Assembly (NCBI GenBank): GCA_013140575.1
Contig: JABFSN010000060.1
Coordinates: 1-54,967, forward strand
Source: Phycisphaerales bacterium
Lineage (GTDB): Bacteria > Planctomycetota > Phycisphaerae > UBA1845
Direction: 5' to 3'
DNA length: 54,967 nucleotides
The position numbers were made by a program, and so were the translations under genes. Shown here in pieces: positions 11,782 to 35,712 of the stretch. The notes under the pieces were generated by a model. That model had not been told where the DNA came from. It saw only the letters and a list, made by a program, of their open reading frames with translations, and did no database searches. The number at the start of each line of letters is the position of its first letter. Within the stretch, counting starts at the first letter, position 1.

Positions 11782-11980
11782 GCGCTGATCTCCTCGCGTC
11801 GCCGCCGGCGCCGGGGCCGAGTTGGCGACAGGTGACCAGAATAGGGTGGGAACCGGCATCCGCAAGTGCAACGGGCATCCGACAACAGATTACAAATCGA
11901 ATGCGATGTGCGTCGCGATGGGTTGCGTGCCACGGGCAGGCATGAAACCAGTAGTCCAACGCACCCTGTTTTTCAGGTGA

Positions 11981-12092
11981 CACGGGCAAGCGTACTCGCT
12001 TGCCCGTGTTTTCAGTTCTGGGCGCCGTCGCTTCGAATCATCACGCACGTCCGCGGCACACGGACAACGGAGTACCGTTGTCCGTGCCACCC
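11981..12092. repeat. REP-like family B copy (two hairpins)
   Basis: cacgggcaagcg-tact-cgcttgcccgtg has perfect 12-bp arms. ggcacacggacaacggagtaccgttgtccgtgccaccc follows. Confidence 0.6.
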
Positions 12093-18862: not shown

Positions 18863-18907
18863 TGTTGAAACACGGGGCTACATTCATGTCTGCCCGTGGC
18901 AGGCAAC
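18863..18907. repeat. repeat family E (gaaacRcggggctacattc...ggcaggcaac); second copy at 107-151
   Basis: 107-151 is gtgaaacgcggggctacattcgggcctgcatgcggcaggcaactc. 18863-18907 is gttgaaacacggggctacattcatgtctgcccgtggcaggcaacc. Both lie 3' of minus-strand genes. Confidence 0.5.
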
Positions 18908-19055
18908 CCGCGCCCACGCCCATCACAGACCAAGCGCAAGCTCGCGGACCCGCAACACGCGCCGCGGACACGGGTGGGGGCACTATAATCAATCCGTTGG
19001 CTTTCGACGATAGTCGGGCGACGGAAACGTCTGAATCCATTCGACGATTCGGAGA

Positions 19056-25256: not shown

Positions 25257-26825
25257 CTATTTCACCCTCCGCGGCGCGATCCATTCCCACGGGACGTCGC
25301 GCACCGGCCGGTCCCGCAAGGCCCAGACCAGCAGAATCGGCCTGGTCGGGTCTCGATCGTCACCGTCAATGCCGGCGGGGGCGTAGTAGGTGTCAAGCAA
25401 TGGCATCAGGAACTCGAAACCCGGTTCCACGAACAACATCATCCGCGGCCGGCTGTTTTCCAGTTCATTTAGGAGAACCTCGCGCCGCGATTCGAACCCG
25501 ACCGCGCCCCGTTCCAATGCCCCGATCATGGTGTACCGCGACGCACAGCGTCGGTTCGCGTAGTAGTAGATGCCCGCGTCCTTGCCCCAGATGAACACCG
25601 TGTCATTGGGTTCCGTCAACTCGGCCACCCGCCGTCCCTGGGCCCGCGCCCATTGGTCGCGGTAATCGTACCGCCCCGCGGCGAATTGCGCCACGTCCAC
25701 ACCCAGATAATAGCGATACTGAAACGCCGCCAGCGCGACCAGCCAACCCAATCCGACGACCCACGCCGCGGGTCGCGCCAGCGGAGCCCCTATCCACAAG
25801 AGCCCGCAACCCACCACCATCGGTGCGATCATCAAGTAGTAGTAATGCGGCCAGAATCGTCCGGGCATCACGACCGCGAAGAAGCACGCCAGCAGGTAGC
25901 ACACCCATGCACATTCAATTCCTGCCGGGGTTTTCCGCACCGACTTCGCCAACACCACGAAAACCGCGATCGTGGCCAACCACAACGGCAAGGCGGATGC
26001 GAACACCGGAAAAATTGGATCGAAGAATTCGCCGATCCGTAGGTGCCCTCGCGTATCCGCACCGGCATATCCCACGTTGAACCGAAACACCGCGTCGACG
26101 AACGCTTCCCACCGACCGGTCGCGGCGAAATAACCGCCGATCCCCATCCAAAACAACGCCGGTCCGGCGGCCAGGTACAACACGATGCGAATTGCATATC
26201 GCGCCGAACGGTCCGGCAAGCGCCGGTTGTATAGCGACCAGATCAGCAGCGCGACCCAAATCGGCGCGACCACCGTCTTGAGCGTCGACGCGACACCCAA
26301 TAACATCCCCGCAATCAGCAATCGCCTGTTCGTTGCCATCGGCCCGCCGGTCAACACGGCCAACGCCCCCAGCGTCAGCGTGTTCATGTAGATTTCGCGG
26401 TTGCACCCGTCGCCGGCCGTCCCCGGGTCGGACGAAACTATTGCGAATGCAATCGCCGCGAACACCCCGGCCGCGTCGCCCACCCGCCGCGACACGAGCT
26501 GGAATACAAGCCCCATCGACGCCAGCGAGAACCCCGTCGCCAGCCATCGAAACACCGCTTCCCCGTCGCCGAACAGCGCAATCACTCCCGCGAACAGAAC
26601 AAACACCCCCGGCGGCTGATGGTCCCACACGTCCACGTACAACCGATCCCCGGCCAGCAACCGCCCGCCGATGTACGCGTAATTGCACTCGTCGGTTTCC
26701 AATGGCGCCGGAAAGGCGTGCAGCCGAAACACAACCAGCACCCCGGCCGCGATGATAAGGCCAATCCAAATCGGCCACCGCGTGCCACGTGATCGAGTTG
26801 GCGTCACGTCAGTTTGCGAGTTCAT
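25257..26825 (-). CDS. GT-C fold membrane glycosyltransferase (family 39/83-like, PMT/ArnT-like)
   Basis: 522 aa with about 12 TM helices. An N-terminal DE..Y..GGRLLAGDRLYVDVWDHQPPG loop-1 motif is typical of the ArnT/PMT_2 family. Confidence 0.6.
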   Translation of the reverse strand: MNSQTDVTPTRSRGTRWPIWIGLIIAAGVLVVFRLHAFPAPLETDECNYAYIGGRLLAGDRLYVDVWDHQPPGVFVLFAGVIALFGDGEAVFRWLATGFSLASMGLVFQLVSRRVGDAAGVFAAIAFAIVSSDPGTAGDGCNREIYMNTLTLGALAVLTGGPMATNRRLLIAGMLLGVASTLKTVVAPIWVALLIWSLYNRRLPDRSARYAIRIVLYLAAGPALFWMGIGGYFAATGRWEAFVDAVFRFNVGYAGADTRGHLRIGEFFDPIFPVFASALPLWLATIAVFVVLAKSVRKTPAGIECAWVCYLLACFFAVVMPGRFWPHYYYLMIAPMVVGCGLLWIGAPLARPAAWVVGLGWLVALAAFQYRYYLGVDVAQFAAGRYDYRDQWARAQGRRVAELTEPNDTVFIWGKDAGIYYYANRRCASRYTMIGALERGAVGFESRREVLLNELENSRPRMMLFVEPGFEFLMPLLDTYYAPAGIDGDDRDPTRPILLVWALRDRPVRDVPWEWIAPRRVK

Positions 26826-26879
26826 TCGACTTGCGCCCGATCCACGATCCGATTCAAGCCGATGGCTCGGCGGAAAACC

Positions 26880-26912
26880 GCGTCTTTCCGAGCCGCGACC
26901 GTAAGGGAGCGG
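26880..26912. repeat. left arm of 33-bp perfect inverted repeat flanking the T5orf172 operon
   Basis: gcgtctttccgagccgcgaccgtaagggagcgg is the exact reverse complement of 29238-29270. Confidence 0.7.
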
Positions 26913-26951
26913 TCTGACGCAAAGGCACGGTGGCGGCTTCGCCGCGCCGGT

Positions 26952-28430
26952 TCAATCCTCGGCAATCGCATCCTCTTCCGGTTCATCAAGTTCGTCGTAA
27001 ATCCGCTCCACGTATTCGGCGTCCTCGTCCGAGATTTGCATGGTGTCGCGGTACTGCAACGCCTCCGCGTCGGCCGTGTATTGCACCTCGCCGTGATTGG
27101 CCTCTACGATCGCGCGGATGGATTCGATGTCCGCTCTGAAGAACTCCTTGCGGGGGTTGACCTTGTTCATGCGCAGTTTGTGTAACGCTCGATGCAGCGC
27201 GTTTTCCAGCGACGGCGCATCGTCGCAGGAAATCATCATGTGCACGTCGTAGGGAAATGGAACGGCCGCGCCCGACAGTTCTCTCACCCGTTCCTCCGGT
27301 TCAAGCCGCCGGCTCATTCCGATTTTGAATACGCCGTCGCCGAAGGAGCCGATGTTGGAAATCACATAGACGTGGCCCGACTTGGTGAGCTGCGCCTGCG
27401 AAATCGCCCGCTCGTGTCTGCCCTCGGCCTCCGTGAGCCGCCCCCTCAACCGTTCGACCTCCGCGCTGTGCTCGTCCTTCGCTTCGCGAAGGGCCTTTTC
27501 CAAGGCCGCCCGAATCGCGACCCGCTCGCGATCGAGCCGCTCCAACTCGCGTTTGATCTCGTCCTCCCGCTTCATCTCTTCGCGAATCTGGGCTTTGATT
27601 CGAGCCTGCTCCTCTCGCTCGAATGCCGCCCGCACGGCGCGCTCGAACTCCGCTTTCAGGTTGGCCAACATTCTCGCTTCATCGGCCTCGCCGATGCCAA
27701 AACCGATTTCGCGGCACCATTCGATGGTCTTGATCAGGCGTTGTTTGCTGCTCGCGAAATTGTTCGGCGTTATGGACGAATCGATCCACTTGACGGTATC
27801 GTTCAAGTATCGATCGGCCAATTCTGAACTTCTTGCACCAATCCTGTGTTGCTCTTCCTCACGAATGTCATGGTCCAACTGCAGCTTTCGCAGGTTTACA
27901 TCGACGTTTTGAAGATCGCGTTTCAGGATGATGTTCTCCTGATGGAGCTCATCATACGATACGACTCGCCGGGCAAACTCCGCCTTTGCCAGACTTAACG
28001 CATCCTCCCGCAACGCGAATTCCGTCGATCGTCTTTCCAGATTCGCGTTTACCTCGTGAGAATGATTCTCGACCTCCTGTGCTCGCCTTCCGATCGCCGT
28101 ATCTCGCGCTTCAACTTGCTTTTCGAACTCGCGCACTCGCACGTCAAACTCACGCTTGCGTATGTCAAGCTGGTCGGCCTCCCGCTCCATTTGTTGAAAG
28201 GAGCCGACGGCCTTCAGAAACTGCGCCTGCGTTGCGTTGAAGCGTTCCCAGTCTTCGTCCTGTTTCCGTTTGCGAGCTTCGGATCGCTCTAGATTCTCTT
28301 GAATCTCCATCGCCTTGAGACCCAACTCCCGTAATCGTTGTCGGCGACCGGCACGGGAACCTTCAAGAACGGTGAAGGCAAGAAATGCACCGCCGACGAA
28401 TCCGGCGAGCGCAAATAAAAGTTCAGTCAT
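26952..28430 (-). CDS. membrane-anchored coiled-coil protein with C-terminal T5orf172/MUG113 (GIY-YIG-like) domain (DUF4041-type architecture)
   Basis: N-terminal TM (LLFALAGFVGGAFLAFTVL) and about 330 aa of Glu/Arg-rich coiled coil. Then GHVYVISNIGSFGDGVFKIGMSRR...VPFPYDVHMMISCDDAPSLENALHRALHKLRMN...REFF, matching T5orf172. Acidic C-terminal tail. Confidence 0.65.
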   Translation of the reverse strand: MTELLFALAGFVGGAFLAFTVLEGSRAGRRQRLRELGLKAMEIQENLERSEARKRKQDEDWERFNATQAQFLKAVGSFQQMEREADQLDIRKREFDVRVREFEKQVEARDTAIGRRAQEVENHSHEVNANLERRSTEFALREDALSLAKAEFARRVVSYDELHQENIILKRDLQNVDVNLRKLQLDHDIREEEQHRIGARSSELADRYLNDTVKWIDSSITPNNFASSKQRLIKTIEWCREIGFGIGEADEARMLANLKAEFERAVRAAFEREEQARIKAQIREEMKREDEIKRELERLDRERVAIRAALEKALREAKDEHSAEVERLRGRLTEAEGRHERAISQAQLTKSGHVYVISNIGSFGDGVFKIGMSRRLEPEERVRELSGAAVPFPYDVHMMISCDDAPSLENALHRALHKLRMNKVNPRKEFFRADIESIRAIVEANHGEVQYTADAEALQYRDTMQISDEDAEYVERIYDELDEPEEDAIAED

Positions 28431-29113
28431 TGTTTGTCTCCGCCGGTCGAAGGGGAGTTACCTGTAATGATTGTGTGCCAAGTCGTTCGGCCGCATTCGG
28501 AACAGTGGATTTGTTCAAGGAACATTGCCTTCGGCGCCTCTGCTATTGCGCCGCAGGCAAAGCACTTTGCGGAAACGACCTGGCCCAGTCTCGTCGCTAT
28601 CAAAACCCGATACGATGCCCCGTCCCTTTCCCGGAAAACCAGACCCATGTGTTCCCACGATTCGGCGATCGACCGCCACCGGGCTTGGTCGCCGCCAAGT
28701 TGTTGGCGAAGCTCATCCTGTCGGACGTGCGGATGCTGTTCGAGGTGATGCCACATGCGGTGTGCGTCCCACATGAACGCCCGCGCCTGCGCAAGACGAT
28801 CCGCAAGATCGTCGGACGCGAACTTGTCGATGCGGCGGTATTCGGCGAAGAGCGCCTCCATTTTGTTCAATGTCTCGAAGTCGAACAGCAAGGGGGCGAC
28901 ATTGAGAACCATGTCGATGGCCTCGACGCTCTTGAATTCCCGCTCTTCCCAGCGGCGCTCGTACTGCATCATTCCGTCGATGTACGGCCACGAATCGACG
29001 GCTCGGCGAAGGGCCTCACGGTACAATCCCTGCCTCAGCGCGCTTTGCGCGTCAGACATGAGCTTGTGGTACGCGTCGCGATGGGCCTCCAATTCCGCCT
29101 TCTTCATGGCCAT
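28427..29113 (-). CDS. hypothetical protein with predicted winged-helix and C-terminal zinc ribbon
   Basis: 228 aa, helical N-terminus, a wHTH-like segment and CFACG...CSECG (two CxxC pairs). Its stop overlaps the start of the T5orf172 gene by 4 nt, so it is the first gene of the operon. Confidence 0.5.
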   Translation of the reverse strand: MAMKKAELEAHRDAYHKLMSDAQSALRQGLYREALRRAVDSWPYIDGMMQYERRWEEREFKSVEAIDMVLNVAPLLFDFETLNKMEALFAEYRRIDKFASDDLADRLAQARAFMWDAHRMWHHLEQHPHVRQDELRQQLGGDQARWRSIAESWEHMGLVFRERDGASYRVLIATRLGQVVSAKCFACGAIAEAPKAMFLEQIHCSECGRTTWHTIITGNSPSTGGDKQ

Positions 29114-29237
29114 GGCGTCACTCCGCGCTGCATGACAATTCGATGGGTGGTGCGATGTTACGCAATCGGAGAGACTTTAGCCCGGCGCTCGATGGCAGGC
29201 AACGCCGCAATGCGTACTGCGGGAGTGGTCGGCGTGC

Positions 29238-29270
29238 CCGCTCCCTTACGGTCGCGGCTCGGAAAGACGC
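29238..29270. repeat. right arm of 33-bp perfect inverted repeat; followed by tandem cggctcggaaag x2
   Basis: ccgctcccttacggtcgcggctcggaaagacgc is the exact reverse complement of 26880-26912. Confidence 0.7.
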
Positions 29271-29304
29271 GGCTCGGAAAGCTGGGAATAGCCCCGAACC
29301 GGCG

Positions 29305-29362
29305 GGCTCATTGCTACGGTCGCGGAATCGCCGGCGGGTCGTCGTGGCGGCCGGTGGAGCGA
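29305..29362 (-). pseudogene. remnant of the 3' end of a DUF1559 gene (duplicate of the 30092-30138 sequence)
   Basis: 29324-29357 is 34/35 identical to 30102-30135, the last codons plus stop of the intact DUF1559 gene. On the minus strand it reads ...RHDDPPAIPRP*, against ...RNDDPPAIPGT* in the intact gene. Confidence 0.5.
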
Positions 29363-29376
29363 GATCATCGGGCGAT

Positions 29377-29763
29377 TCAATAGGGCACTTCCAAGGTGAT
29401 CGACTCAAATCGTGAAAAATGCTTCTTGTCGAGCGATACGACGGTGGCTCCGATCCGTGCGGCGGTCGCGGCAATGAGGCAATCGAGCCAACCGACGCCG
29501 GTCGAAAGGCGCAATCGTCGTAGCGACTCAAGCGACGTGGTCATATCGTCCGGCGTTGGACGGTGAACGTGAAACGTCGCTACCAAACGATCGATCGCCG
29601 CGAGTTCGCGGGTGTCTCTCGCGCCTGAAATCAGCTCGGCCACAACCGCGGAATGGGTCGTCAGGCGAGTGGCGCGGTATCGGGAATGAAGGTACAGTTG
29701 CGCGAGGTTCCTCCCTCGTAGAAAGTCGACGAGTATGGAGGTGTCGATCAACAATTCACTCAT
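29377..29763 (-). CDS. vapC: PIN-domain toxin VapC
   Basis: 128 aa. LLIDTSILVDFLRG N-terminal acidic motif, and PIN-fold acidic residues distributed through the length. Confidence 0.8.
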   Translation of the reverse strand: MSELLIDTSILVDFLRGRNLAQLYLHSRYRATRLTTHSAVVAELISGARDTRELAAIDRLVATFHVHRPTPDDMTTSLESLRRLRLSTGVGWLDCLIAATAARIGATVVSLDKKHFSRFESITLEVPY

Positions 29764-29980
29764 TCATTCCCTCATGTTCGATGGTTGCACGAAGCCGGCG
29801 GGAAGTTTCAACGGAATCGGTCATGTCCGTTCGGTCCCGCCAAATGCCGAAAGCGGGATGCGTTTGAAAGGGACTCCCGTCTTCCTCAATGAGCGAGACC
29901 TCGACGACCGCGCCATCTGGCAACGTCGCCCCTTTGTTCATCACGACGACCCCGTTCTGAACGACGCCTCGATAAGTCAT
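29756..29980 (-). CDS. vapB: VapB-like antitoxin (small PIN-associated antitoxin family)
   Basis: 74 aa, YRGVVQNGVVVMNKGATLPDGAVVEV. Overlaps the vapC start by 8 nt. Confidence 0.6.
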   Translation of the reverse strand: MTYRGVVQNGVVVMNKGATLPDGAVVEVSLIEEDGSPFQTHPAFGIWRDRTDMTDSVETSRRLRATIEHEGMNE

Positions 29981-30091
29981 AGAGATCGCCTCCCTTGACG
30001 CGCATTATATCACACAGCCACCCGTCGAGGCCACCGCATTGCGAATATGTCCGCCCCGAAAGGCCGCGAAACAGCCGCAGCAAGCAGCGGA

Positions 30092-31000
30092 TTACGTCCC
30101 CGGAATCGCCGGCGGGTCGTCGTTGCGGCCGGTGGGGGTGAACCAGCGGTTGGTGGGCGGGTCTTCGACGGGTTCCAGATCGACGTAGGCGCCGCTGGGC
30201 AGAATGCGGTAGCCGAACTGTTGCGGCGTGCGGGCTTCGGCGTGTCCGTCGCAGAAGATGGCGTTGGCCTTGCCTTCGTGACGTGGATCGACCGACGTGC
30301 GCGGCGAGCCCACGTCGCCCGAGCCGCGGTCGGAGACGGCCGTCAGACGCGGCGGGTCCAGCGTCCAGCCGTGATTGCCGGCTTCGGCGAAGTCGGTGCC
30401 GTTATTGTGGTAGGGCTTGCGCTGGTCGAGCGGCTTGCCTGCCGCCGTGCCCAGGCAGTCGGTGCCCATCACCATGCCGGAGACGTTGACGATTCGCGAG
30501 CGGATTACGGGGAAGTTATGAAACTGCCCGGCCGTCTTGCGGGCGTTGCCGAGGAAATGGTGGTTGTAGCCGAAGGCGTGGTTCCGTTCGTCGATCCATT
30601 GCGACGCGGTGGGGCACTGGTAGACGACGGAATCGTAATCCTGCCGGTCGTCGGTGATGCTGGGCTTGTCGAACGCGAAGATTCCCACCTGCCGGCCCAT
30701 GGTCGCCACCCAGCGCGGGCGATATTTCAGGCCGTTGCCGATCTCGTACCAGTTGAGCGGATTGGTCTTGCCGCCGGGTTCGTTGCCGTACCGCCCGGGC
30801 AGGCAGACGTCCTTGTTTTCGTCGGCGTACATGTGCCAGCCGTGGGACAATTCACGCAGATGGGACATGCACACCAGCCGTTTGCCCTGCTTCCGCGCGC
30901 CGGACAGCGATGGCAAAATGATGCTCAACAAAAGCCCGAGGATGGAAATGACCACGAGCAGTTCGATCAGCGTAAACGCCCGGCGGCTTCGTGCATTCAT
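30092..31000 (-). CDS. DUF1559 (H-X9-DG) prepilin-type N-terminal cleavage/methylation domain protein
   Basis: Start MNARSRRAFTLIELLVVISILGLLLSIILPSL. C-terminal HEGKANAIFCDGH gives the H-X9-DG motif. Confidence 0.85.
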   Translation of the reverse strand: MNARSRRAFTLIELLVVISILGLLLSIILPSLSGARKQGKRLVCMSHLRELSHGWHMYADENKDVCLPGRYGNEPGGKTNPLNWYEIGNGLKYRPRWVATMGRQVGIFAFDKPSITDDRQDYDSVVYQCPTASQWIDERNHAFGYNHHFLGNARKTAGQFHNFPVIRSRIVNVSGMVMGTDCLGTAAGKPLDQRKPYHNNGTDFAEAGNHGWTLDPPRLTAVSDRGSGDVGSPRTSVDPRHEGKANAIFCDGHAEARTPQQFGYRILPSGAYVDLEPVEDPPTNRWFTPTGRNDDPPAIPGT

Positions 31001-31127
31001 ATCGCTCGCCTCCTGTCGCCATGAATCATTGGTACGCCCAAGTCGCGTGTGTTGATCAGAACCCGCACCGCGAGTGGCGGGACGACCACGACAGTCGTCC
31101 GCATTCCCACTCGTCGAAGGCCGGTAC

Positions 31128-31160
31128 TGAATCGGCCCCGGACTTCCGTCCGGGGTTCTG
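31128..31160. repeat. repeat family C (tcggccccggacttScgtccggggttctg)
   Basis: Hairpin ccccggac-ttcc-gtccgggg. Other copies at 35587-35620 (+) and 9433-9458 (reverse orientation). Confidence 0.55.
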
Positions 31161-31233
31161 ATGCCCCGGTACGCAAACGTACGCATCCGAGTGATGCCGA
31201 CGCATTGCAACCGTCACCCTCATTCCGGCACCG

Positions 31234-34109: not shown

Positions 34110-34147
34110 CGCTGTTGTAACGGCGGGCGAATCCGACAAACCGAAAG

Positions 34148-34223
34148 CACGGGCAAGCGAGTACGCTTGCCGGTGCCACCCGAGCGACGCACGGGCATGC
34201 GGGTACGGCGGCCCGTGCCACCC
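34148..34223. repeat. REP-like family B copy
   Basis: cacgggcaagcgagtacgcttgccggtgccaccc, then gcacgggcatgcgggtacggcggcccgtgccaccc. A partial copy also occurs at 171-193. Confidence 0.55.
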
Positions 34224-34277
34224 GCACGTTTCAGGACGTCGCAACGCTCGCTTGATTTTCGAAGGGCCGATCCACGC

Positions 34278-35484: not shown

Positions 35485-35712
35485 GCCGTCCCGAGCGGGC
35501 CCGGCGATAGCTACTTGATTGCATCACCGAAGTGGCGGCGCGCGTCGGGCTTTCGGTGCCGATCCACGGCACTTCCGGATCGGTGGTAATTCGGCCCCGG
35601 ACTTGCGTCCGGGGTTCTGGATCGTTCGCAGGCCTGCGCATGGCTTGTTCGAGAACGATGCGCGTCGTCGAGGCAAACCACCCTACGGAACCCCCGTCGT
35701 GCGGTCGAGGCC

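Follow-up and report, generated by a model that had tools for sequence, protein, structure and literature searches.

SNIPE-type nuclease homologue coupled to a conserved winged-helix/zinc-ribbon partner between REP-like repeats in a Phycisphaerales genome

We analysed a 54,967-nt stretch of DNA (hereafter, the window) from a Phycisphaerales bacterium (Planctomycetota; GenBank assembly GCA_013140575.1, contig JABFSN010000060.1), in which a perfect inverted repeat encloses a small operon (Table 1). Between the two arms, which are 35 nt long and 2,325 nt apart, there are exactly two open reading frames, both on the minus strand: one for a 492-amino-acid (aa) homologue of the anti-phage nuclease SNIPE (PD-lambda-1) and, upstream of it, one for a 228-aa protein (hereafter, the partner). 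A previous interpretation made from the sequence alone (the sequence-only reading) had correctly described the repeat as perfect and as bracketing exactly these two genes, but had given the arms as 33 rather than 35 nt. Its two-gene operon with a 4-nt overlap is borne out: the stop codon of the partner gene overlaps the start codon of the nuclease gene as ATGA, and the gene pair is conserved at 12 other loci. The composition of the cassette is foreign: G+C content is 0.65 and 0.63 in the flanks but 0.58 between the arms, and it drops to 0.53–0.56 in the cassette core.

The 492-aa protein is a full-length SNIPE homologue. In hidden Markov model (HMM) searches, the PADLOC PD-Lambda-1 model PDLC03976 aligned with residues 38–473 of 492 (model positions 38–479 of 491; E = 1.5e-76), and a second PD-Lambda-1 model, PDLC03977, matched nearly end to end (E = 4.3e-71). 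PHROG 1847 (phrog_1847) also matched the nuclease (E = 1.8e-83), and Pfam placed T5orf172 (E = 8.2e-16) and MUG113 (E = 7e-16) domains at residues 352–443. A transmembrane (TM) helix is predicted at residues 4–22 (LLFALAGFVGGAFLAFTVL; Kyte–Doolittle mean, 2.31), and its position is kept in an alignment of nine homologues. The AlphaFold2 model is helical at residues 2–349 (predicted local distance difference test (pLDDT) score of 85–96 for helical residues 180–270) and contains an alpha/beta domain at residues 355–452. The architecture anticipated by the sequence-only reading—a TM helix, about 330 aa of helical sequence and a T5orf172/MUG113 domain (Pfam E of ~1e-16)—is therefore confirmed, as is the T5orf172 assignment at HMM level, and the PADLOC matches place the nuclease in a validated anti-phage family. 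The description of the module as being of unknown function is outdated for the nuclease, given that the mechanism of SNIPE was published in 2026 (PMC13190303). Residues Y355, K369, G371, R374, R375, E409, N422 and E429 are invariant in 40 homologues; the order Y...G...R...E...N appears to be that of GIY-YIG nucleases, and E409 is probably equivalent to E414 of Escherichia coli SNIPE, judging by the model coordinates. The DUF4041-like region (up to approximately residue 349) is covered by the PD-Lambda-1 model alignment, and residues 159–349 are strongly conserved. The protein ends in an acidic tail (16 D/E among the 37 residues 456–492), and such a tail, with the motif EALEYRQSLxISDEDxEFIExVYDxLDEE, is common to the partner-linked SNIPE homologues.

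The partner belongs to a real, conserved and undescribed family. We identified at least 179 close relatives (~226 aa; 48–60% identity), and an exhaustive profile search recovered 482 clusters (50% identity), of which 270 reached E ≤ 1e-30; nearly all are of ~220 aa. Searches of Pfam, NCBIfam, PADLOC and PHROGs gave nothing meaningful for the protein, and it had no match in phage records, plasmid records or viral contigs. The AlphaFold2 model (pLDDT of 92) consists of a helical N-terminal domain carrying a conserved DGMMQYE motif, a winged helix and a Cys4 zinc ribbon, in agreement with the sequence-only reading, which had recognized a winged-helix-like segment and a zinc ribbon in a protein without a named family. 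In a 42-member alignment, D46, M48, Q50, W153, T174, C184, C187 and K195 are invariant, and the remaining two cysteines, C204 and C207, are at least 90% conserved. Structurally, the winged helix comes closest to bacterial DNA-binding repressors, and the arrangement of helical domain and winged helix gave weak PCI-like matches; a fold search against the PDB and a viral structure library returned winged-helix matches only, with no full-length analogue.

Gene order ties the partner to the nuclease. At nine of nine loci found through partner homologues (L002, L003/4, L005–7, L008 and L198–L201), a T5orf172 gene lies immediately downstream on the same strand and its product matches PADLOC PD-Lambda-1, and at three of three loci found through nuclease homologues (L202–L204) the partner lies upstream. 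The distance between the two genes ranges from a 4-nt overlap to ~13 nt across these 12 loci, save for an insertion at L202, whereas the flanking genes differ at each locus and are mostly housekeeping genes. Matches with a named source come mostly from Planctomycetota (Phycisphaerae, Pirellulales and Tepidisphaeraceae). Judged by this gene order, the partner is an integral, co-inherited second component of this SNIPE clade, which is seen mainly in Planctomycetota. What is new here is the coupling of a SNIPE homologue to a conserved upstream partner, the SNIPE family itself being already known; in the literature, we found no link between T5orf172 or SNIPE proteins and a zinc-ribbon partner. We rejected the idea that the partner is an unrelated housekeeping regulator, given the strict linkage in 12 different genomic contexts.

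Individual loci show further features. At L202 (positions 1511–5146 of a 2.29-Mb contig), an IS630-like element (HTH_32 and DDE_3) separates the partner and SNIPE genes, and the SNIPE product is annotated as shorter (381 aa); this copy of the system is probably inactivated. At L002, a metallo-beta-lactamase-fold gene (8031–8891; Lactamase_B, with a faint match to Anti-Pycsar Apyc1) overlaps the SNIPE stop codon by 4 nt and may be a third member of the operon in that genome only. Defence or toxin–antitoxin genes (AbiEi/AbiEii, MazE-like and ParDE) occur within a few kilobases at L201 (9006–10519), L203 (79–681 and 5475–6082) and L008 (657–1219), and such neighbours fit a defence-islet context, like vapBC in the window.

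The 35-bp repeat is generic DNA resembling repetitive extragenic palindromic (REP) units and not a terminal repeat of the cassette, given that none of eight other partner–SNIPE loci tested has a flanking inverted repeat (no inverted 12-mer in the 500-nt flanks) and that the core is common elsewhere. The exact 23-nt core (GAGCCGCGACCGTRAGGGAGCGG) occurs in at least 120 stretches of species-representative genomes from at least four phyla-level groups (Acidobacteriota, Planctomycetota, Chloroflexota and Gammaproteobacteria), with hosts that include Bryobacterales, Solibacter, many Planctomycetota, Chloroflexota and the isolate Legionella shakespearei, and in 33 viral contigs (L205–L237). Example sites among the genomic stretches (L009–L128) are L032 3524–3546 (L. 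shakespearei), L051 2517–2576 and L075 6326–6348; in AT-rich gammaproteobacteria, the 23-mer stands out as a GC-rich hairpin between unrelated housekeeping genes. A cassette-specific repeat, as the sequence-only reading would have it, is largely contradicted by these occurrences, which are mostly short-loop intergenic hairpins without cargo. Literature searches turned up no relevant paper that prints the repeat or the spurious peptides translated from it. The arms do not belong to a known RNA family, as a scan of positions 26000–30500 against Rfam (E ≤ 1) gave no match. Because the inverted repeat is absent from the other loci, we rejected the idea that it is a conserved element regulating the operon.

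Among the fetched loci, we counted 264 REP units at ≤3 mismatches. They lie in intergenic DNA between unrelated genes, singly or in pairs and in either orientation, and only ~27 nt are conserved between copies. Hairpins of the "+ then −" type account for 42 of 74 close adjacent pairs and have loops of mostly 8–32 nt; the pair in the window has the same topology, but its 2,325-nt spacer is unlike the short spacers of REP doublets. Distant inverted pairs were also found, bracketing nuoD/nuoE (L052), the genes for a CCA-adding enzyme and a pyridoxamine oxidase (L012), and those for a transposase and an MqsA-type antitoxin (L115). At L002, the nearest relative of the cassette, a REP hairpin (8901–8981) lies beside the cassette, after the metallo-beta-lactamase-fold gene, and not around it. 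The arms in the window are the only two copies at ≤3 mismatches in the 54,967 nt (100 shuffles gave none), and their similarity exceeds that in each of 61 other inverted pairs surveyed within single genomes: perfect identity extends outward beyond the core for 12 nt, compared with 0–7 nt in 43 hairpin pairs and 0–6 nt in 18 distant pairs. The exact 35-mer had no match in 185,579 species genomes, a set that does not include the source genome, and no second copy of the composite of repeat and cassette was found in any collection searched. A Logan contig of 2,382 nt ends within both arms, which we rejected as a sign of inversion because a 31-mer assembly graph gives the same result for any 35-nt inverted repeat.

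Immediately beyond the two arms there is an imperfect direct repeat, GGCTCGG(CG)GAAA. It is REP-internal sequence and resembles partial duplications at REP copies in other genomes. REP copies often have a partial tandem duplication on their outer side, of the form GAGCCGCGAC-N5-7-GAGCCGCGACC... or GAGCCGCGAC, 5 to 7 nt, GAGCCGCGACCGT... (for example, in L013, L025, L047, L083 and L100), and the right arm in the window has one too; such a duplication may be a footprint of how the REP unit is copied.

Table 1 Features of the SNIPE–partner locus and its surroundings in the window.
Feature	Positions	Strand	Basis or remarks
Imperfect direct repeat outside the arms	26863–26876 and 29271–29281		GGCTCGG(CG)GAAA
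Left arm of inverted repeat	26878–26912	+	REP-like unit (core GAGCCGCGACCGTAAGGGAGCGG, 26890–26912) with 12-nt outer extension (CCGCGTCTTTCC); 39 nt beyond nuclease stop codon, 52 nt ahead of next gene (start 26825)
SNIPE (PD-lambda-1) homologue, 492 aa	26952–28430	−	HMM matches, architecture
Acidic tail of nuclease	26952–27065	−	Residues 456–492
T5orf172/MUG113 match	27102–27377	−	Residues 352–443
Predicted TM helix	28365–28421	−	Residues 4–22
Stop–start overlap	28427–28430	−	ATGA
Conserved partner gene, 228 aa	28427–29113	−	Alignment, AlphaFold2 model
Partner Cys4 zinc ribbon	28466–28579	−	Residues 179–216 (C184, C187, C204, C207)
Partner winged helix	28589–28735	−	Approximately residues 127–175
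Partner helical N-terminal domain	28736–29101	−	Residues 5–126
Spacer of 124 nt, right arm to partner start	29114–29237	−	Presumed promoter or 5′ untranslated region
Right arm of inverted repeat	29238–29272	−	REP-like unit reversed, core 29238–29260
Partial tandem duplication	29253–29281	.	CGCGGCTCGGAAAG twice, period 15; outer end of right arm
Direct repeat of 43 nt around vapBC	29315–29357 and 30093–30135		91% identical
vapC	29377–29763		
vapB	29756–29980		
Other intergenic palindromic repeat families	1592–1760, 9426–9467, 11973–12078, 18866–18927, 31053–31162, 34139–34224, 35580–35619		Unrelated to the inverted repeat

The neighbouring genes have housekeeping functions and encode a secretin, BirA, a PMT_2 glycosyltransferase, SucC and RecG, and a Pfam scan of part of the window showed no recombinase or transposase among them. 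A terminator scan found a single terminator-like site, located within a coding region. The vapBC genes next to the right arm are flanked by a 43-nt direct repeat, the second copy of which is the 3′ end of a DUF1559/H-X9-DG gene (stop codon at 30092). The arrangement suggests that vapBC came in separately, by another insertion in which the 3′ end of the DUF1559-type gene was duplicated, and 26.9–30.1 kb would on this account be a small islet built up from nested acquisitions. The window also contains intergenic palindromic repeats of several other, unrelated families, for example, CACGGGCAAGCG...CTTGCCCGTG and CCCGGACGCAAGTCCGGGGCC.

We consider it probable (roughly 0.6) that positions 26913–29237 are a SNIPE-type anti-phage cassette of two genes that was acquired horizontally. 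The nuclease would be a single-pass inner-membrane protein with a cytoplasmic helical, DUF4041-like region and a C-terminal GIY-YIG (T5orf172) nuclease, and most likely works like E. coli SNIPE, through membrane-located cutting of phage DNA during injection; the membrane anchor would keep the nuclease off the host chromosome. We infer the anti-phage activity of this homologue by analogy with the E. coli work. Two results count against this assignment: the pLDDT of the nuclease domain in the AlphaFold2 model (40–60) is too low for a fold search, and Pfam DUF4041 had no match at E ≤ 1 in the 492-aa protein.

The translationally coupled, cytoplasmic partner would regulate, a regulatory role being the most likely one. 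Because its winged helix is most like those of bacterial repressors and its gene is first in the operon, we tentatively favour a DNA-binding autoregulator of the operon over a role at the protein level, although the evidence is not all on one side. With a pI of 6.4, the protein is slightly acidic, an uncommon property in a repressor; a comparison of nine loci revealed no conserved palindromic operator ahead of the partner gene; no sigma-70-like promoter turned up in a promoter scan; and the N-terminal domain shows strong conservation. All of these weigh against an autoregulator. They leave room for a subunit acting at the protein level, either as an antitoxin-like guard of newly made or mislocalized nuclease or as an adaptor that recognizes phage components. 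This would also suit the translational coupling, the strict adjacency and similar divergence of both proteins, the invariant D46, M48 and Q50 of the DGMMQYE motif, the weak PCI-like matches (the PCI fold serves as a protein scaffold) and the conserved acidic tail on the nucleases of this clade, and it fits the toxicity of E. coli SNIPE without its TM helix and its unexplained auto-inhibition (PMC13190303). Such a subunit is a possible, if less favoured, alternative, as the winged helix remains structurally closest to DNA-binding repressors. First-gene winged-helix regulators are, moreover, common in defence operons. We regard as doubtful the still more specific proposal that the partner is an obligate second subunit gating the nuclease, whether by guarding it like an antitoxin or by sensing injected DNA, and, separately, that the cassette entered via a REP doublet serving as portable homology. 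If true, the partner would supply the self-protection that E. coli SNIPE achieves alone, and a REP unit nearly identical across phyla could be portable homology that moves defence genes between distant bacteria.

How the cassette came to lie between the arms is a matter of three readings. The most economical is that it arrived by insertion into, or recombination through, a pre-existing REP doublet, because the cassette occupies the loop position of a REP hairpin. The DUF1559-type gene and the gene for the PMT_2 glycosyltransferase would have flanked this doublet, with the cassette inserting into the spacer or recombining in through shared REP arms. The repeat probably marks the boundaries of one insertion event, given the unusual similarity of the arms and the foreign composition of the cassette. 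We hold the doublet origin itself only provisionally, as a 35-nt perfect pair exceeds ordinary hairpin doublets and no empty site was found: 69 metagenome loci with relatives of the flanking glycosyltransferase gene offered full-length matches at most ~50% identical and synteny on the birA side only. Coincidental flanking, in which two independent REP insertions landed beside a resident cassette and the 35-nt identity reflects a genome-specific REP consensus, would draw on the abundance of the unit, which is intergenic in many genomes as single copies in either orientation, and on the distant inverted pairs around ordinary genes elsewhere (L052 and L012). REP-type elements also tend to build up beside acquired DNA. 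We nevertheless judge it unlikely: the only two copies in 55 kb surround one operon in hairpin topology, for which the rough chance is a few per cent, and the 18 same-genome distant pairs fall short of the 12 nt shared here beyond the core.

The sequence-only reading had instead proposed a module bounded by the repeat and possibly mobile or invertible, either cassette-like or similar to a miniature inverted-repeat transposable element. On such a view, the 35-bp arms would be the terminal repeats of a non-autonomous element that carries the two genes; a "REPIN with cargo", mobilized by a transposase of the RAYT type, would be another form of it. The exact bracketing of the operon by arms perfect over 35 nt, their similarity beyond that of other surveyed inverted pairs of this repeat family, the lower interior G+C content and the imperfect direct repeat just outside both arms would all be expected of such an element, and REPINs are regarded as non-autonomous mobile elements (PMC3116915, PMC3337134). 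Against this stand the eight other independent cassette loci without a flanking inverted repeat, the lack of a second composite copy in any collection searched and of a transposase or recombinase among the neighbouring genes, and the occurrence of the unit elsewhere without cargo or beside housekeeping genes; the outside "direct repeat" is part of the REP unit, copies of which show similar partial duplications in other genomes. We therefore consider a mobile or invertible element highly improbable, and the locus is better taken as a concrete example of a defence cassette within a REP doublet than as the mobile module bounded by inverted repeats, an idea that should not be kept as stated.

REP and REPIN elements (Bertels & Rainey 2011, PMC3116915; PMC3337134) share with the repeat a short, GC-rich extragenic unit present in many copies, typically as an inverted doublet with a short spacer; they differ in that the units in the window are separated by two genes. 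No RAYT gene was found, and no search aimed at one was made. REPIN–RAYT systems have been described (10.1101/2022.05.22.493013) as specific to lineages, within which their inheritance is mostly vertical. Against that description, the identity of the exact 23-mer across at least four phyla is odd for a REPIN-type repeat and suggests horizontal spread.

For the partner, comparison with archaeal TFE-alpha, eukaryotic TFIIE-alpha and ArsR-, MarR- and Fur-type repressors revealed no sequence similarity (zinc-ribbon matches at chance level only, E > 0.1 in a profile search against PDB sequences). Unlike these winged-helix proteins, it has an extra 125-residue helical N-terminal domain, for which neither the PDB nor the viral structure library offers a full-length match. 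PDC-S57 (a PADLOC candidate system) and other T5orf172 defence proteins share the C-terminal nuclease domain with the 492-aa protein (E = 8.5e-21, residues 350–470), but the match is confined to that domain and the remainder of the protein follows the PD-Lambda-1 model.

The closest known system is E. coli SNIPE (Vassallo et al. 2022, PMC9519451; Saxton et al. 2026, PMC13190303). This nuclease sits in the membrane, cleaves phage DNA while it is being injected and protects against siphoviruses. It depends for function on each of three parts, the TM helix, the DUF4041 domain and the GIY-YIG domain; without the TM helix it is toxic, and the membrane-bound form is described as auto-inhibited by an unknown mechanism (PMC13190303). 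The homologue described here has its parts in the same order (N-terminal single-pass TM helix, central helical DNA-binding region and C-terminal GIY-YIG/T5orf172 domain with a conserved catalytic-type Glu), and the cassette genes likewise form a small stand-alone insert among unrelated genes. Compared with E. coli SNIPE, the homologue has almost no N-terminal periplasmic segment, its TM helix beginning as early as residue 4, and gives no Pfam DUF4041 match; the host lineage is Planctomycetota, to which the cassette would extend SNIPE-type defence and in which few phage–host systems are known. SNIPE is a newly understood form of immunity in which self and non-self are told apart by DNA location, with cutting at the site of phage injection, and the E. 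coli work leaves open how the membrane-bound protein stays auto-inhibited and how its specificity is set. E. coli SNIPE was described and validated as a single protein, and neither "zinc" nor "upstream" nor any partner appears in the paper (PMC13190303), whereas here and at 12 other loci a gene for a winged-helix/zinc-ribbon protein of 220–230 aa is coupled upstream. In a clade where every nuclease is paired with such a protein, the pairing would provide a natural handle on the auto-inhibition and specificity of SNIPE.

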